The notes beneath the pieces were generated by a model. That model saw only the letters and a list, made by a program, of their open reading frames with translations. It was not told the DNA's origin and searched no databases. From the NCBI GenBank assembly GCA_021129515.1, contig JAJOLD010000001.1, positions 61,633-125,632 on the forward strand: DNA of 64,000 nucleotides, in the 5' to 3' direction. How positions within the stretch are numbered: the first letter of the stretch is position 1; each line of letters starts with the position of its first letter. The position numbers and the translations under genes were made by a program. The stretch comes from Minisyncoccota bacterium. Its GTDB lineage: Bacteria; Patescibacteriota; Minisyncoccia; Phycocordibacterales; UBA918. Shown in pieces: positions 13,500 to 57,322 of this stretch.

Positions 13500-13522
13500 A
13501 CATGTGAGAATTTTCCCTAAGT

Positions 13523-13543
13523 GTCCTAGGGGACCCCTAGGAC
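13523..13543. repeat. REP-like palindrome family B (GTCCTAGGGG-A-CCCCTAGGAC), copy 1
   Basis: Perfect 10-bp arms; identical 21-mer at 23315-23335; sits in the divergent intergenic region. Confidence 0.7.
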
Positions 13544-13626
13544 ATAGCAGGTGGTCAGAGACTCCCTCTGACCATACGGTATATTTCCTTTGAATTAGAG
13601 AGTTATTGTGCTAATATTTCGGCTCT

Positions 13627-15408: not shown

Positions 15409-15439
15409 CGACGTCAAAAAGCAACGCTTTTTGACGTCG
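15409..15439. repeat. 31-bp hairpin with perfect 14-bp arms in a divergent promoter region
   Basis: CGACGTCAAAAAGCaacGCTTTTTGACGTCG. Confidence 0.6.
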
Positions 15440-15610
15440 TTACGAGCGAATGCGAAGCAATCCAGAATCTTTGCTACAAAGTACGACTTAAGATATGAAT
15501 TTTAATTAACATAGGTGCCCAGGAAGATACTTGACGTATTAAGAATGTGATGTAGAATATTTCGCAGTAATTAGTTATTCTTATCTTTCTACATCTACTG
15601 GGAGACCGAC

Positions 15611-23314: not shown

Positions 23315-23335
23315 GTCCTAGGGGACCCCTAGGAC
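23315..23335. repeat. REP-like palindrome family B, copy 2
   Basis: Identical to 13523-13543; 8 bp after the stop of the upstream gene. Confidence 0.7.
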
Positions 23336-23368: not shown

Positions 23369-23400
23369 AAAAAAGCCGCCCTGACCTGGGCGGCTTTTTG
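23369..23400. terminator. Bidirectional terminator
   Basis: aaaaAGCCGCCCtgacctGGGCGGCTtttt. Confidence 0.7.
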
Positions 23401-25140: not shown

Positions 25141-25899
25141 ATGCAGTGGATTTTTATTGCGGTTATTATTCTTCTCATCTCATTTCTCCGTGAGGTGAAG
25201 CAGTATGAGCGCGGTGTCATGCTTACCATGGGTAAGTACACGGGGCTTCGGAATCCGGGGTGGAGTATTGTGGTCCCTATCTTTCAGAAGATGATTAAGG
25301 TGGACCTCCGTGTGAAGGCGGTGGATGTGCCTGACCAGAAGGTGATTACCCGGGACAACGTGTCTGCGAGTATTAACGCCGTGATTTACTACAAGGTATC
25401 GGACGCGGCGAAGGCAGTGCTCGAGGTAGAGGACTTCCGGCATGCGGTCTCGCAGCTTGCGCAAACGACTATGCGTAACGTGGTTGGTGGTGCGGAGCTC
25501 GACCAGGTGCTTGCGGAGCGTGAAGAGCTCTCAGCACGTATTAAGGAAGTGATTGACCGTGAGACCGACCAATGGGGAATTGCGGTAGAGAATGTGGAGC
25601 TCAAGGACTTCTTCCTGCCCGACGACATGGAACGAACCATTGCAAAGCAGGCTGAGGCAGAGCGAGAGCGACGTTCGGTGATTATTAAGGCGGAAGGGGA
25701 GGTTGCTGCGGCTGAAAATATGGCAAAGGCGGCTGCGATGCTTGCGTCTGCTGATGGTGCGCTGCATTTGCGCACACTCCAAACGCTGAACGACTTGAGC
25801 TCAGACCAGTCAAATACGGTAGTGTTTGCAACGCCGATTGAGGTTTTGCGTGCACTAGAAGGACTTGCGCCTAAGAAACGTACCGATAATCAAGGGTAG
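25141..25899 (+). CDS. SPFH/band-7 (stomatin/prohibitin-like) domain protein
   Basis: N-terminal TM, then the conserved YERGVMLTMGKY...VITRDNV...AVIYYKV SPFH core and an Ala/Glu-rich coiled-coil tail. Confidence 0.9.
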   Translation: MQWIFIAVIILLISFLREVKQYERGVMLTMGKYTGLRNPGWSIVVPIFQKMIKVDLRVKAVDVPDQKVITRDNVSASINAVIYYKVSDAAKAVLEVEDFRHAVSQLAQTTMRNVVGGAELDQVLAEREELSARIKEVIDRETDQWGIAVENVELKDFFLPDDMERTIAKQAEAERERRSVIIKAEGEVAAAENMAKAAAMLASADGALHLRTLQTLNDLSSDQSNTVVFATPIEVLRALEGLAPKKRTDNQG

Positions 25900-25912
25900 G
25901 TGGGTGACTTCT

Positions 25913-26092
25913 GGATTGCTTCGTCATTCCGTTTCACTCCACTTCTCGCAATGACGTCTAGCTGAAACTTACTGTATCCGACTAATTAGTCGGATACAGT
26001 ACGTATGTTGTGTGCTGCGACGGCTAAAAGCGAAGATTTTAGCCGGTGACGAACGCGAAGCGTTCGTCATTGCGAACGGAGTGAAGCAATCC
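25913..26092. repeat. Dense inverted-repeat cluster / MITE-like structured element
   Basis: Terminal inverted segments (GGATTGCTTC...TCGCAATGACG vs CGTCATTGCGA...GAAGCAATCC). Central 30-bp perfect palindrome ACTGTATCCGACTAATTAGTCGGATACAGT (25971-26000). Two further perfect hairpins (CGGCTAAAAgcgaagaTTTTAGCCG; GACGAACGCgaaGCGTTCGTC). Confidence 0.6.
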
Positions 26093-26201
26093 AGTAGGTA
26101 AAAAATCCTGAAAATAGGGGCTAAACTAGAGTAACACAGAAAAAACGGCTTAAAACATGCCTATTGTAACTATTGACACACATCCGAAGTCATTGCATAA
26201 C

Positions 26202-26229
26202 TTGACTTTGGGTATAGGTGTGCTATAAT
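26202..26229 (+). promoter_or_regulatory. Near-consensus sigma70-type promoter (TTGACT-16-TATAAT)
   Basis: TTGACT at 26202-26207, TATAAT at 26224-26229. Confidence 0.5.
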
Positions 26230-26341
26230 AGGCGCATAAGCGGCTAACGCCGTTTTTTTTGTTGGATAAGACTCTTGGCTTATTTTATCAAGCGTTATTA
26301 CTGCAATTCTTGCGGTAACACAGATTGGCGCAGTTCCTGCA

Positions 26342-26716
26342 TTGGATACTGCATATGGGCACATTGCAACAAATGAAGCACTCATCGCTGAAACACTCGA
26401 AGAAATGACTACCGAAGAAGCGGTACGTACATACTTCAGCGATATACCGGTTATGATCCACATTGCTCGCTGTGAGTCAACGTTTCGACACACACTTGAA
26501 GATGGTTCAGTTCTTCAGGGACGGGTAGACCCAGCAGATACTGGGGTAATGCAAATTAACAAGCGTTACCACGAAACTACTGCTGATACCCTTGGTCTTG
26601 ATTTGGACAACCTCTACGATAATATGGCGTACGCGCGTAATCTCTATGAGAGACAAGGCGTACAGCCATGGAGTGCTTCGGCACCGTGTTGGGGAAAGAC
26701 CATTGCGATGCGTTAA
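26342..26716 (+). CDS. Small SLT (lytic transglycosylase) domain protein, TTG start, no signal peptide
   Basis: IARCESTFRH...GVMQINKRYH...LYDNMAYARNLY...W; paralogue of the C-terminus of 15611-16603. Confidence 0.6.
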   Translation: MDTAYGHIATNEALIAETLEEMTTEEAVRTYFSDIPVMIHIARCESTFRHTLEDGSVLQGRVDPADTGVMQINKRYHETTADTLGLDLDNLYDNMAYARNLYERQGVQPWSASAPCWGKTIAMR

Positions 26717-26782
26717 ACCCTATAACAAAAGCCGCACCCACTTCGTGGGTGCGGCTTTTGTTGTGCCTGCGTGTGGCACTAC

Positions 26783-29485: not shown

Positions 29486-30064
29486 ATGAGCAAGTACGAA
29501 TCATACAAAGAAAAAATATTCGCATTCTACGAAGCGCAAAAGCGCATGCCCAGCTATGCCGAAATCATGGAGCTCGTCGGCTTTAAGTCAAAAAATGCCG
29601 TATCAAAACTCATCGACAAGCTCATGGATGAAGGACTTATCGATAAAGATGCACAGGGGAGACTCATCCCCGCGTCACTCGACACCGGTGTACCACTCTT
29701 GGGGCTGGTAGAAGCCGGCATTCCCACCATGGCAGATGCCGACATGCTCGACTCTATTAGTCTTGATAACTACCTAATAGAAGATAAAGCAAAAACCTTC
29801 ATCCTCGAGGTAAAGGGTGACTCAATGATTGAGGCGCATATCGAAGAAGGCGACTACGTCATTGCAGAACGCACCGAAGATGCACGCGACCGCGATATTG
29901 TCGTGGCAGAAGTCGATGGAGAGTGGACGCTCAAATATCTCCGTAAAGATCCCGCACAAAATACCATCTGGCTTGAACCGGCAAACAAGAACTATGCACC
30001 CATTCATCCCGCGCATTCATTGCGCATTGCAGCAATTGTAAAGGGTGTATTAAGGAAATATTAG
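29486..30064 (+). CDS. lexA: LexA repressor
   Basis: N-terminal winged HTH (AEIMELVGFKSKNAVSKLIDKLMDEGLI), Ala-Gly cleavage site (VEAG), S24 peptidase with GDSM and KYL Ser/Lys dyad. Confidence 0.9.
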   Translation: MSKYESYKEKIFAFYEAQKRMPSYAEIMELVGFKSKNAVSKLIDKLMDEGLIDKDAQGRLIPASLDTGVPLLGLVEAGIPTMADADMLDSISLDNYLIEDKAKTFILEVKGDSMIEAHIEEGDYVIAERTEDARDRDIVVAEVDGEWTLKYLRKDPAQNTIWLEPANKNYAPIHPAHSLRIAAIVKGVLRKY

Positions 30065-30106
30065 TTAGTCAGATAAACTACACGCTTAGTTTATCTGACT
30101 AACTAA
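30061..30106. repeat. Perfect 20-bp-stem hairpin overlapping the lexA stop codon
   Basis: TTAGTTAGTCAGATAAACTAcacgctTAGTTTATCTGACTAACTAA; no U-run. Confidence 0.7.
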
Positions 30107-30252
30107 TTCCGTGTCATCATTGCGAAGCATGGAGCAGAGCGGAATGCTGAAGCCTGACTGCATGCGACGCACCTGTTTGCGTAAGTATACGCACAGGCAA
30201 TCCAGAAAGGGTAACCAACATAAAACTTTTTATGTTATAACGTCTATCACAT

Positions 30253-44617: not shown

Positions 44618-44636
44618 TACAAGGTCCGACCTTGTA
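44618..44636. repeat. Diverged family-C-like palindrome (TACAAGGTC-c-GACCTTGTA) between the T-box terminator and the aspS RBS
   Basis: 9-bp perfect arms; shares the GGTC.GACC core with the RAYT-2 flanking palindromes. Confidence 0.5.
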
Positions 44637-51494: not shown

Positions 51495-51517
51495 ATACAG
51501 GGGTCGGACCCCTGTAT
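51495..51517. repeat. REP palindrome family C (ATACAGGGGTC|GGACCCCTGTAT), left flank of RAYT-2
   Basis: Perfect 23-bp palindrome. Confidence 0.75.
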
Positions 51518-51533
51518 AGGATATACTAAAATC

Positions 51534-52157
51534 ATGCCAAGAAATCTTACTCCCCTTATTACGGGCGAAACATACCATATATACAATAGAGGTACTGAGA
51601 AGAGAAATATTTTCTGTGATAAGCAAGATTACCTCAGGTTTTATGCATCATTAGACCGTTTCAATATTGAAGAACCAGTTTTGAGCTTGCGGGATGCGAA
51701 AAGAAATAGTGATACAGATATCAAGCGTCTTGTTTCTATATCTGCATATTGCTTACTTCCAAATCATTTCCATCTTATGATGACTCAGTTATTGGATGGC
51801 GGTATTAGTGAATTCTTAAAAAGAGTCACTGGTGGTTACAGTGGCTATTTTAATGAAAAAAACAATCGTTCAGGCTCTCTATTTCAAGGTAAATTTAAAC
51901 GCATTCATGTAGATAGTGAAGCATACAGGCAATATTTGCTTGTATACATCAATGAAAATCATCATGTACATAAACTTGATGGTGTTTGTGATATATATCA
52001 TACAAGTTCCGTGCATTATCAGGGTCTCAAGCGCAGTAATCTTATTCAAGACAGTCATATCGAAAAATATTCAACACAAGAAGCCAAAAAGTTGGCAGCT
52101 GATATATACCAAAGACGAAATGCTGAAAAGAAACTACTTCAAGTCTTAGGTGAATAA
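51534..52157 (+). CDS. REP-associated tyrosine transposase (RAYT), paralogue 2
   Basis: YHIYNRG, HUH motif NHFHLMMTQ, Tyr motif LLVYINENHHVH; about 55 % identical to paralogue 1; flanked by family-C palindromes. Confidence 0.8.
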   Translation: MPRNLTPLITGETYHIYNRGTEKRNIFCDKQDYLRFYASLDRFNIEEPVLSLRDAKRNSDTDIKRLVSISAYCLLPNHFHLMMTQLLDGGISEFLKRVTGGYSGYFNEKNNRSGSLFQGKFKRIHVDSEAYRQYLLVYINENHHVHKLDGVCDIYHTSSVHYQGLKRSNLIQDSHIEKYSTQEAKKLAADIYQRRNAEKKLLQVLGE

Positions 52158-52163
52158 ATACAC

Positions 52164-52188
52164 TATACAGGGGTCGGACCCCTGTATA
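52164..52188. repeat. REP palindrome family C, right flank of RAYT-2
   Basis: TATACAGGGGTCGGACCCCTGTATA, perfect 25-bp palindrome. Confidence 0.75.
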
Positions 52189-52621: not shown

Positions 52622-52733
52622 GATGTGACTATGGAGATGTAAGTGGTCGCTCTCTGGATTGCCTGCCTGTGCATGTTCACATGCAATCGGGCTTGTCACT
52701 TCACTTCGTTTCGCTCCTCGCAATGACGGTAGG

Positions 52734-56496: not shown

Positions 56497-57183
56497 TATA
56501 AATGGAAAAGAGTGTTGTGTAAAGAGAATTTTAGGGCTTGTATAAAGGGTATAATAGTGATGTAAAGATTCCTGGTTATTTAGGCGCCGCCGCGCTTGCT
56601 TATTAACCAACTGTGCTCGTGCTACGAGAACAGTTAAACCAATAAAAAATATTACAACTTATTTTGTGATTAAAAAACCCTGAAATTTTATTTCGGGGGG
56701 TTAATAGAGCTACACACATCAATCAAAGAATTCGTCAGCGGGCTCTATATTGAGCTCTACTACCATCTTAATAATCTCATTCCGAGTAACTAATTGTGGA
56801 ATCAGTGATTCATGACCAAGATACATGGGCGAATATATATAGTTCCTTGCTCGTCTTTGTTTCCGAATGAACTCAGGTATTACTTCGTCTACGGGTATAT
56901 TTTGCGTATTTGCAATCAATTGCTTGAACAAAGGTTCAAGGTCAGTACCCGAATATTACTGAATAATTTCTAGGTTTGTCACTGCTTGTCTCCTTTGGAA
57001 CGAAATCAAACTTTCAACTACCATATCTGCATATAAAGTGCATGATATTTTTTATCGTTTACCTCACAAGTTGCTAACTATTTTAAGAAACTGCGTTTTT
57101 AAAATAGTAAGTACTCGCGAGCCCGCCTCGCGGTTCGTCGCCCTAGGTTAGGGGCGACTCACAACGCTCCGGCCGTCGAAACT

Positions 57184-57211
57184 AAAAAAAGCCGCGAAGG
57201 CGGCTTTTTTT
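57184..57211. terminator. Bidirectional terminator-like hairpin (unit 1)
   Basis: aaaaaaaGCCGCgaagGCGGCttttttt. Confidence 0.7.
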
Positions 57212-57322
57212 AACGCTTTGGCGTCAGGTTTGTAACTCGCTGCGCTCCTAACAACCTCCTGCCCGGGCTCGCTCGTTTCGGCATGTAGGAATAGCCGAAA
57301 CATTGCTCCGCCTGTCCAAGCT

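Follow-up and report, generated by a model that had tools for sequence, protein, structure and literature searches.

What is the dense cluster of perfect palindromes that lies between an SPFH gene and a short SLT-like gene in a genome of the Patescibacteria? The cluster occupies positions 25913-26092 of the window, that is, of the whole 64,000-nucleotide stretch of contig JAJOLD010000001.1 that was analysed. An initial annotation had described it as nested palindromes with inverted termini and had proposed a miniature transposable element, a structured regulatory RNA or a recombination site. All of the stems were present at these positions. With a probability of roughly 0.75, the segment is a tag-facing inverted pair of CGTC-tagged repetitive extragenic palindrome (REP) units, a class also named NTS or SRM; the units would belong to an ATTGCGA subtype, be separated by a hairpin-rich spacer and have been inserted behind the SPFH gene. 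Family membership was seen in the tag, the tail and the pairing pattern, the subtype was associated with two genes of the nuclease Ssn, and the insertion was seen by comparison with relatives. Cleavage of units of this class by Ssn was demonstrated elsewhere (PMC11893778) and would apply here by analogy.

The inverted termini of the block were two copies of a repeat unit of 30-46 nt, U1 and U2 (Table 1). From tag to tail, the unit consisted of an unpaired CGTC tag, ATTGC, GA, a variable apical hairpin, GAA, GCAAT and a CCAG tail. In DNA folds, the basal stem had 5 bp and led through a GA/GAA internal loop to an apical stem, of 2 bp or variably longer, that ended in a GNA loop. The canonical sequence, as written for the single-stranded form, was CGTCATTGCGAGCGAAGCGAAGCAATCCAG, and the general unit pattern was [CT]GTCATTGCGA-N(0-45)-GCAATCCAG. 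Read from the tag, the commonest unit was the 30-mer CGTCATTGCGAGCGNAGCGAAGCAATCCAG (N, any base), followed by the 36-nt variant CGTCATTGCGAGGAGCGAAGCGACGAAGCAATCCAG; rarer units had the same flanks and unrelated middle hairpins. The apical hairpins varied in sequence and kept their structure, with GCGNAGC as the commonest form and GCCGAAGGC, CCGGCGTCGTTGGACGCCGG, AAAATTTTTAATTTT and others beside it. We take the GCGNAGC apex to be the classic, very stable GNA-triloop DNA mini-hairpin.

Self-BLAST within the window showed that the 180-bp segment as a whole was single-copy; only its ends gave short matches, at three further sites. The exact sequence CTGGATTGC occurred five times in the window against 0.62 expected, and none of 100 shuffles gave five. 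Reading and alignment of the match sites gave five alignable units, all intergenic, and four of the five loci started no more than about 12 nt from a stop codon or overlapped it (SPFH, a LexA-like gene and dnaJ). U1 had flanks identical to the family consensus, CGTCATTGCGAG and GAAGCAATCCAG, and its enlarged middle held a small hairpin of its own, CGTCATTCCG / CGCAATGACG. U3 matched a Melainabacteria unit in L027 (L-numbers are labels of comparison loci or contigs), and a 14-bp perfect hairpin at 15409-15439 abutted and included its tag. On the tag side of U4, a perfect palindrome with a 21-bp stem (30060-30107) overlapped the stop codon of the LexA-like gene, and the tag end of U5 lay 5 nt 3' of the dnaJ stop codon. 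Hairpins were inserted mid-unit in U1, U4 and U5; a perfect hairpin abutted or included the tag in U2, U3 and U4.

The spacer between U1 and U2 was 108 nt long and held three perfect hairpins, H1 to H3. The 30-bp palindrome of the initial annotation was confirmed as H1 and extended to 32 bp; self-search found no second copy of H1 within the 64-kb window. Two further hairpins had been given 9-bp stems and GAA-containing loops. Both were present, with a stem of 9 bp in H2 and of 10 bp in H3. The GCGAAG motif capped both of them, the H2 loop GCGAAGA resembling the GCGAAGC apex of the canonical unit, and the CGTC tag of U2 sat inside the 3' arm of H3.

The fold, which the initial annotation had marked for checking, lay far beyond that of shuffled sequences, with a z-score of about -8 as RNA or as DNA. 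The RNA minimum free energy was -92 kcal/mol for the plus strand (z -8.0) and -85.8 kcal/mol for the minus strand (z -9.25), and none of 200 shuffles was as stable for either strand. The DNA minimum free energy of the segment was -54.3 kcal/mol (z -8.05). First-order Markov simulations of the window sequence predicted about 1.5 perfect hairpins with stems of at least 9 bp, and 30 were present. Hairpins per se are therefore common in this genome, and the special features of the block are their clustering and the conserved termini. Many of the 30 hairpins consisted of an A-run, a GC stem and a T-run (23370-23399, 26724-26762, 57183-57212) and look like bidirectional intrinsic terminators. In the 64-kb window, the tRNA/tmRNA scan found none and no Rfam family reached its gathering threshold.

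Table 1. Coordinates of the block, its parts, the repeat units and neighbouring features in the window
Feature	Position	Strand	Remarks
SPFH/slipin gene, MCD5381750.1	25141-25899	+	Candidatus Pacebacteria, Patescibacteria/CPR; stop codon 25897-25899
Whole inserted block	25902-26098	.	About 190 bp; no counterpart in syntenic relatives (alignment with L213, L210, L212)
Outer inverted arms CTTCTGGATTGCTTC / GAAGCAATCCAGTAG	25908-25922 / 26083-26097		15 nt, 93%
Inner arms TCGCAATGACG / CGTCATTGCGA	25946-25956 / 26065-26075		11 nt, 100%
Unit U1	25911-25956	-	CGTCATTGCGAG...GAAGCAATCCAG, tag to tail on the minus strand; atypical 46-nt copy
Spacer hairpin H1	25970-26001	.	Halves TACTGTATCCGACTAA and TTAGTCGGATACAGTA; 32-bp perfect palindrome (30 bp at 25971-26000)
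Spacer hairpin H2, CGGCTAAAA-GCGAAGA-TTTTAGCCG	26021-26045	.	9-bp perfect stem, loop GCGAAGA
Spacer hairpin H3, TGACGAACGC-GAA-GCGTTCGTCA	26047-26069	.	10-bp perfect stem, cap GCGAAGC
Unit U2, CGTCATTGCGAACGGAGTGAAGCAATCCAG	26065-26094	+	Near-canonical 30-nt copy, low-GC variant
Unit U3, CGTCGTTACGAGCGAATGCGAAGCAATCCAG	15435-15465	+	Near-canonical; basal stem decayed (GT replaces AT)
Unit U4	30112-30205	+	TGTC-tagged long variant, about 70 nt of inserted hairpins
Unit U5	52654-52728	-	Long variant of the 36-nt subtype with inserted hairpin
Promoter-like site TTGACT-16-TATAAT	26202-26229	+	11/12 consensus matches
Small hairpin and T8 run, GCGGCTAACGCCGTTTTTTTT	26238-26262	+	3' of the promoter-like site, outside the insertion
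RAYT-like/IS200-like Y1 transposase gene, MCD5381777.1	51534-52157		Pfam Y1_Tnp E 1.3e-4, NCBIfam REP_Tyr_transpos E 6.6e-7, both below curated cut-offs
Palindrome TACAGGGGTCGGACCCCTGTA, two identical same-orientation copies	51496-51516, 52166-52186		Bracket the RAYT-like gene

Distribution of the unit and its place among known repeats

The strict pattern CTGGATTGCTTC-N(1-31)-TCGCAATGA was scanned in bacterial contigs with one genome per species and gave at least 120 stretches in species-representative genomes. Statements on hosts, pairs and neighbours refer to the 120 loci among the matches listed. The hosts, Alphaproteobacteria and Gammaproteobacteria among them, included Bradyrhizobium and other Hyphomicrobiales, sphingomonads, Rhodospirillales, Rickettsiales, Micavibrio, Legionellales/Coxiellaceae, Lysobacterales and Solimonas. 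Other hosts were termite-gut and rumen Bacteroidales, Spirochaetaceae, Chitinispirillales and Opitutaceae, together with a metagenome-assembled genome (MAG) labelled Deltaproteobacteria, the Melainabacteria contig L027, a Bacillota MAG (L096) and a Parcubacteria MAG (L121). The unit sequence was nearly unchanged across genomes of 33% to 70% GC, which argues for sequence-specific protein recognition or frequent horizontal transfer.

The strict pattern also gave at least 120 stretches in viral contigs of IMG/VR (L220-L339), and one ssn-like open reading frame (ORF), without a unit nearby, was present in 1.1 Mb of those contigs. The unit-bearing IMG/VR contigs could be phage DNA proper or host flanks of prophages, and both are conceivable. 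Thirteen large plasmids or chromids were matched as well, with nothing annotated under the matches.

Pairs of units were tail-facing in 85 cases, tag-facing in 11 and tandem in one. In tail-facing pairs the CCAG tails faced each other across about 20 nt, and the gaps of tag-facing pairs were 12-132 nt. Elsewhere, the unit occurred singly or mostly as a tail-facing pair; the window pair had the rare tag-facing orientation. ORF clustering found no shared or enriched transposase near the units, and their neighbours belonged to housekeeping families such as ABC transporters, SDRs and two-component systems. Rfam gave no match at gathering threshold for 18 family loci, and nothing credible on the canonical Bradyrhizobium dimer at E<=10.

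Alternating-orientation arrays or tandem partial copies were noted in L008 (26-345), L020 (150-400), L051 (410-700) and L078 (550-700). The tandem partial copies in L078 repeat GCTTCGCTCGCAATGACGAAATGT..., and the arrays resemble clusters of the bacterial interspersed mosaic element (BIME) kind. The consensus unit translates directly to the spurious peptide LDCFASLAMT. Spurious unit-derived peptides of this sort pollute hypothetical-protein annotations.

The class of CGTC-tagged REPs was described by Di Nocera, De Gregorio and Rocco in 2013 (BMC Genomics 14:522, PMC3733652). Its members have an unpaired CGTC tag (variants TGTC and CCTC), a stem that starts A-T, A-T and a tail that fits CCA. 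One type of inverted dimer prevails over a rare second type, with a negligible share of tandem pairs; the dimer spacers are 20-100 bp long and sometimes contain stem-loops. The repeats sit just behind ORFs without a dedicated transposase, and no RAYT was flanked by CGTC repeats. The hosts are mainly Alphaproteobacteria, and also Bacteroidetes, Spirochaetes, Coxiella, Rickettsia (RPE-4/6), Micavibrio and Neisseria (dRS3). The four families CGTC-1 to CGTC-4 have stems of 8-9 bp and loops of 4-5 nt (PMC3733652).

The present unit had the same design. The tag was CGTC in U1, U2, U3 and U5 and TGTC in U4; in partner units, which lie outside the constraint of the search pattern, CATTGCGA was preceded by CGT in 94 of 135 cases and by TGT in 11 of 135. 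The consensus and units U1, U2, U4 and U5 all had the A-T/A-T stem opening and the CCA tail, as ATTGC...GCAAT with CCAG behind it; U3 was decayed. As in the published class, inverted dimers of one orientation dominated and tandem pairs were negligible. The units were intergenic behind stop codons and had no linked transposase, the RAYT-like gene of the window being bracketed by a different palindrome, and structured dimer spacers are possible in both. The host range was likewise centred on the Alphaproteobacteria, with Bacteroidetes, Spirochaetes, Coxiella, Rickettsia and Micavibrio.

The differences concerned geometry, host and arrangement. Instead of a continuous stem, the present unit had 5 bp, a GA/GAA internal loop and an apical mini-hairpin. 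Its host here belongs to the Patescibacteria, or candidate phyla radiation (CPR), outside the five phyla reported, and the window pair was of the rare orientation, with three hairpins making up its 108-nt spacer. Because of the mismatch in geometry, the unit was filed in the CGTC superfamily by tag and tail, and in none of the four named families. No string matching the unit was found in the supplements of Di Nocera 2013. Searches of the literature by literal DNA and peptide strings returned only primer coincidences.

Association with Ssn nucleases

The enzyme partner of this repeat class was identified only in 2025. According to Chenal et al. (Nat Commun 16:2388, PMC11893778), SsnA is a 94-aa single-domain GIY-YIG nuclease that binds and cuts the Neisseria repeat NTS, CGTCATTCCCGCGMAVGCGGGAATCYRG, only as single-stranded DNA (ssDNA) and only on the tag strand. 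The cut falls a few nt 5' of the tag. In Neisseria the SsnA/NTS pair modulates natural transformation, and ssn genes across phyla (products of about 95 aa) are typically flanked by their own repeats of the class, also called SRM (Ssn-related motif) (PMC11893778). The ends of NTS, CGTCAT...ATCCAG, were identical to those of the window units, and the apical loop was likewise of the GNA type.

The published SRM motif, HGTCWYN(0-2)YYVSBRHN(0-5)WNVSBRGN(0-2)RNCYNB, was run as a regular expression and gave one unrelated match in the window. The motif missed the ATTGCGA subtype, and the link to Ssn was therefore tested directly at ssn loci. The query, an Ssn-like consensus, retrieved a very large family of GIY-YIG proteins of about 95 aa. 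CGTCAT...ATCCAG repeats were found within 1.5 kb (4 kb for two loci with longer flanks) in 71 of 82 Ssn-like GIY-YIG loci, and the published figure is 71%. Most repeats at the 71 loci were NTS-like, ATTCCCGC.

Two loci carried the ATTGCGA subtype. In L163, two ATTGCGA-type units lay upstream and three downstream of the ssn gene (754-1041). The L163 unit TGTCATTGCGAACGCAGTGAAGCAATCCAG matched U2 of the window at 28 of 30 positions, and the same locus held a tag-facing pair like that of the window. In L214, one such unit lay 3 nt upstream of the ssn gene (2501-2788) and another 13 nt downstream. The L214 protein was 74% identical to that of L163 and was its closest homologue with usable context among the best 120 protein matches; the source contig of the window was absent among these matches. 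Both proteins matched Pfam GIY-YIG PF01541 and would be candidates for the cd10448-like proteins of the published class. Flanking of the small GIY-YIG gene on both sides, the repeat-ssn-repeat order of NTS/SRM, was seen at both loci, and the ATTGCGA subtype therefore has cognate-looking Ssn genes.

Ssn-like proteins were commonly encoded by CPR bacteria (L128, L130, L215-L219). Other close homologues came from Doudnabacteria, Taylorbacteria, Moranbacteria and Patescibacteria, and were flanked by other CGTC/TGTC subtypes. A type-IV-secretion/conjugation-like cluster (PrgI, TraC-like, TraG P-loop) in the Candidatus Taylorbacteria loci L215-L218 (about 500-2800) contained an ssn-like GIY-YIG gene, with six or seven NTS-type TGTCATTCCCGCG...GGGAATCCAG repeats between the cluster genes; L216 also had a second GIY-YIG fragment of 48 aa.

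A very abundant subtype, found in Bradyrhizobium, sphingomonads, Legionellales, Bacteroidales, CPR and viral contigs, is thus missed by the SRM motif, so published counts of Ssn-linked repeats are probably underestimates. Judged from sequence, the window pair would represent a known repeat class in a new host phylum (Patescibacteria), and a sequence variant that escapes the SRM motif and departs in geometry from families CGTC-1 to CGTC-4. The range of CGTC-REP/Ssn repeats would be extended to the Patescibacteria, and the class assignment guards the hairpin cluster against mis-annotation as a small RNA (sRNA), a transposable element or a terminator.

The insertion behind the SPFH gene and competing explanations

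The block begins 3-12 nt after the SPFH stop codon and would form the 3' untranslated region (3'-UTR) of that gene. In the relatives L210/L211, L212 and L213, the SPFH sequences were 86-88% identical and the gene order SPFH, SLT-like, DoxX was kept; EVE and MFS come next in L210/L211, and the contigs of L212 and L213 stop earlier. Between SPFH and SLT, the relatives had a simple terminator hairpin together with a promoter of the TTGACA type and a leader that was conserved; these elements aligned with window positions 26130-26300. The block at 25902-26098 had a counterpart in none of the three. It is therefore a lineage-specific gain and not a conserved regulatory RNA, and the conservation across related genomes that the initial annotation had raised was not found in L210/L211, L212 and L213.

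The identical element was carried by four same-strain contigs recovered from other samples. Three Logan contigs from independent runs (L002, L005 and L007; the runs were SRR27899015, SRR10294826 and SRR1636508) ended in the left arm at 25939 or 25954, two of them at the identical base, which suggests a branch of the assembly graph (repeat copies or allele heterogeneity) or a drop of coverage at the hairpins. The search for a target-site duplication gave at best a weak repeat, (G)TAGGT, at 25896-25901 and 26094-26099. It is short and 9 nt off the left end, and may be a target-site duplication or chance.

Directly behind SPFH, the relatives had a clean terminator hairpin (L210 3795-3830, L212 3798-3830, L213 2035-2060), for example AAAAAATGGCTTATTAAAGCCATTTTTTG. 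In the homologous stretch of the window (26136-26170, AAAAAACGGCTTAAAACATGCC), most of the stem and the T-run were gone. This apparently degraded ancestral terminator (about 26140-26165) is compatible with the hairpin stack having replaced it as the 3' barrier. If transcribed with the SPFH gene, so stable a stack would serve as a barrier or stabiliser at the 3' end.

A structured RNA selected for its fold, whether encoded by an sRNA gene or acting in cis as a regulator or terminator for SPFH or the SLT-like gene, would agree with the extreme predicted stability, with a location 3' of SPFH and shortly before the next promoter, and with the apparent decay of the terminator seen in the relatives. 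H1 fits a loose terminator pattern, and REPs elsewhere serve as 3'-UTR elements (PMC3733652, and a 2026 E. coli preprint). This explanation is nevertheless unlikely. The block was missing from three orthologous loci, its stems were perfect DNA palindromes without G-U pairs, and both strands folded about equally. No Rfam family was found on the element even at E up to 10, matches to CRISPR-DR20, S15 and SAH being far below thresholds and driven by hairpin shape; neither a promoter of its own nor a T-run after the outer stem was found. Quite unlikely is a classical miniature inverted-repeat transposable element (MITE), that is, a deletion derivative of an insertion sequence (IS) with terminal inverted repeats CTGGATTGCTTC... 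used in trans by a DDE transposase and with a target-site duplication. The inverted ends, the small size, the several related copies, the absence from syntenic relatives and the (G)TAGGT repeat at both borders would fit it, as would the three Logan contigs, conceivably through repeat or allele heterogeneity. Bacterial MITEs (Correia, QMITE, Chunjie) are likewise intergenic, 100-200 bp long and strongly structured, with inverted ends and presence or absence in relatives. However, the motif was mostly single or had its CTGG ends inward (85 against 11 pairs), the reverse of terminal inverted repeats, and the building block was a 30-nt palindrome usable in either orientation. The neighbours were housekeeping genes, no parent IS was found, and no shared transposase turned up near the units of the 120 loci; among the loci listed, the only gene seen bracketed by units was that of the 95-aa GIY-YIG nuclease. 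The block had no IS-type terminal inverted repeats and no clear target-site duplication, the candidate being compatible with chance. The proposal of a miniature transposable element thus holds in part: the element is small, non-coding, repeat-derived and inserted, and has relatives; its orientation and the lack of a linked transposase separate it from a classical MITE.

The window also encodes a RAYT-like Y1 transposase, and RAYTs mobilise inverted REP doublets in Pseudomonas and E. coli according to the literature. REP/BIME and REPIN-RAYT systems of these hosts resemble the present units in being short imperfect palindromes that occur as singlets, inverted doublets and clusters at intergenic 3' sites, and in having a single-copy cognate HUH or nuclease gene that is flanked by its own repeats and acts on single-stranded DNA. 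They differ in their GTAG tag and Y1 HUH transposase, as against a CGTC tag and a GIY-YIG nuclease here, and in being lineage-specific and vertically inherited, whereas the present unit was near-constant across phyla. A REPIN-type element mobilised by the gene at 51534-52157 is highly improbable, since the palindrome on both sides of that gene, TACAGGGGTCGGACCCCTGTA, bears no relation to the CGTC units, since these units have no GTAG-type features and since Di Nocera 2013 (PMC3733652) found no RAYT flanked by CGTC repeats. Equally little weight was given to a target for site-specific recombination or integration, the role that Neisseria dRS3 has for recombinases of filamentous phages and of the IS110 type. 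This explanation would draw on dRS3, of the same class and reported as a recombinase target (PMC11893778), on the REPs known as IS110/IS1111 targets and on the frequency of units in viral contigs; but no integrase or IS110 gene was near the block in the window, and only hairpins, with nothing integrated, lay between the arms.

Several points also weigh against a tag-facing pair of CGTC-tagged REPs. The tag-facing orientation is the minority arrangement, and a spacer of perfect hairpins was found in none of 12 tag-facing pairs elsewhere. The geometry departs from that of CGTC-1 to CGTC-4, with a 5-bp stem and internal loop instead of 8-9 bp. The SRM motif matched NTS and missed the canonical units of 30 and 36 nt, the unit of L163 and U1-U3 of the window. 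No ssn-like ORF was found in the 64-kb window (profile search at E<=10 and regular expressions) or, by hidden Markov model search, in the 120 repeat loci. The T-run typical of intrinsic terminators was absent after the hairpin stack. Given the atypical U1, U4 and U5 and the decayed U3, the window copies may be relics.

As an inserted pair of CGTC-tagged REPs, the element would be a non-autonomous, selfish or domesticated repeat without a sequence-specific host function of its own. The stack may have taken the place of the simple terminator that the relatives have at that position. By analogy with SsnA, cuts a few nt 5' of each tag would both fall inside the spacer. A wider but unlikely reading would make the ATTGCGA unit the substrate of a distinct, CPR-common Ssn clade (L163/L214-like) and still mobile. 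Tail-facing doublets would then be gene-less miniatures of the repeat-ssn-repeat cassette, spread between phyla partly on phages, and in DNA-scavenging CPR cells the pair would control which incoming ssDNA integrates. The block itself would be a recent composite insertion, with hairpin cargo between two predicted cleavage sites, that has taken over the terminator role behind SPFH.

Neighbouring genes and other palindromes

The near-consensus promoter reported by the initial annotation was recovered with 11 of 12 consensus positions (Table 1). The promoter and hairpin region (26202-26262) was conserved in L213 (about 2060-2165; hairpin GCGGCTTCGGCCGTTTTTT), independent of the element. The hairpin and T8 run could serve the SLT-like gene as a leader or attenuator, or form a very short RNA.

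The 'short SLT' gene (26270-26716; L210 3979-4410, L212 4023-4409, L213 2263-2682) showed by eye an ES...GVMQIN lytic-transglycosylase-like motif, and had no Pfam or NCBIfam match at E<=0.01. A hydrophobic N-terminal segment, LSSVITAILAVTQIGAV, was open in frame upstream of the annotated TTG and nucleotide-conserved in the relatives. Its region had no ATG, GTG or TTG and contained a conserved in-frame ATT at 26282. This ATT could be a non-canonical start, and the 'short SLT' gene may not be truncated.

The RAYT-like gene with its two palindromes (51495-52188) forms a REPtron-like or IS200-like unit of its own, whose sequence is unrelated to that of the CGTC units. H1 shares TACAG and GTCGGA blocks, differently arranged, with the palindrome that flanks the RAYT-like gene; this likeness was judged coincidental. 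Palindromes GTCCTAGGGG-A-CCCCTAGGAC (two copies) and TACAAGGTC-C-GACCTTGTA were noted at 13522-13544, 23315-23335 and 44618-44636. They share the design ..AGGGGxC / GxCCCCT.. with the RAYT-flanking palindrome, and these small AGGGGxC-type palindromes may be a second small REP family of this genome.

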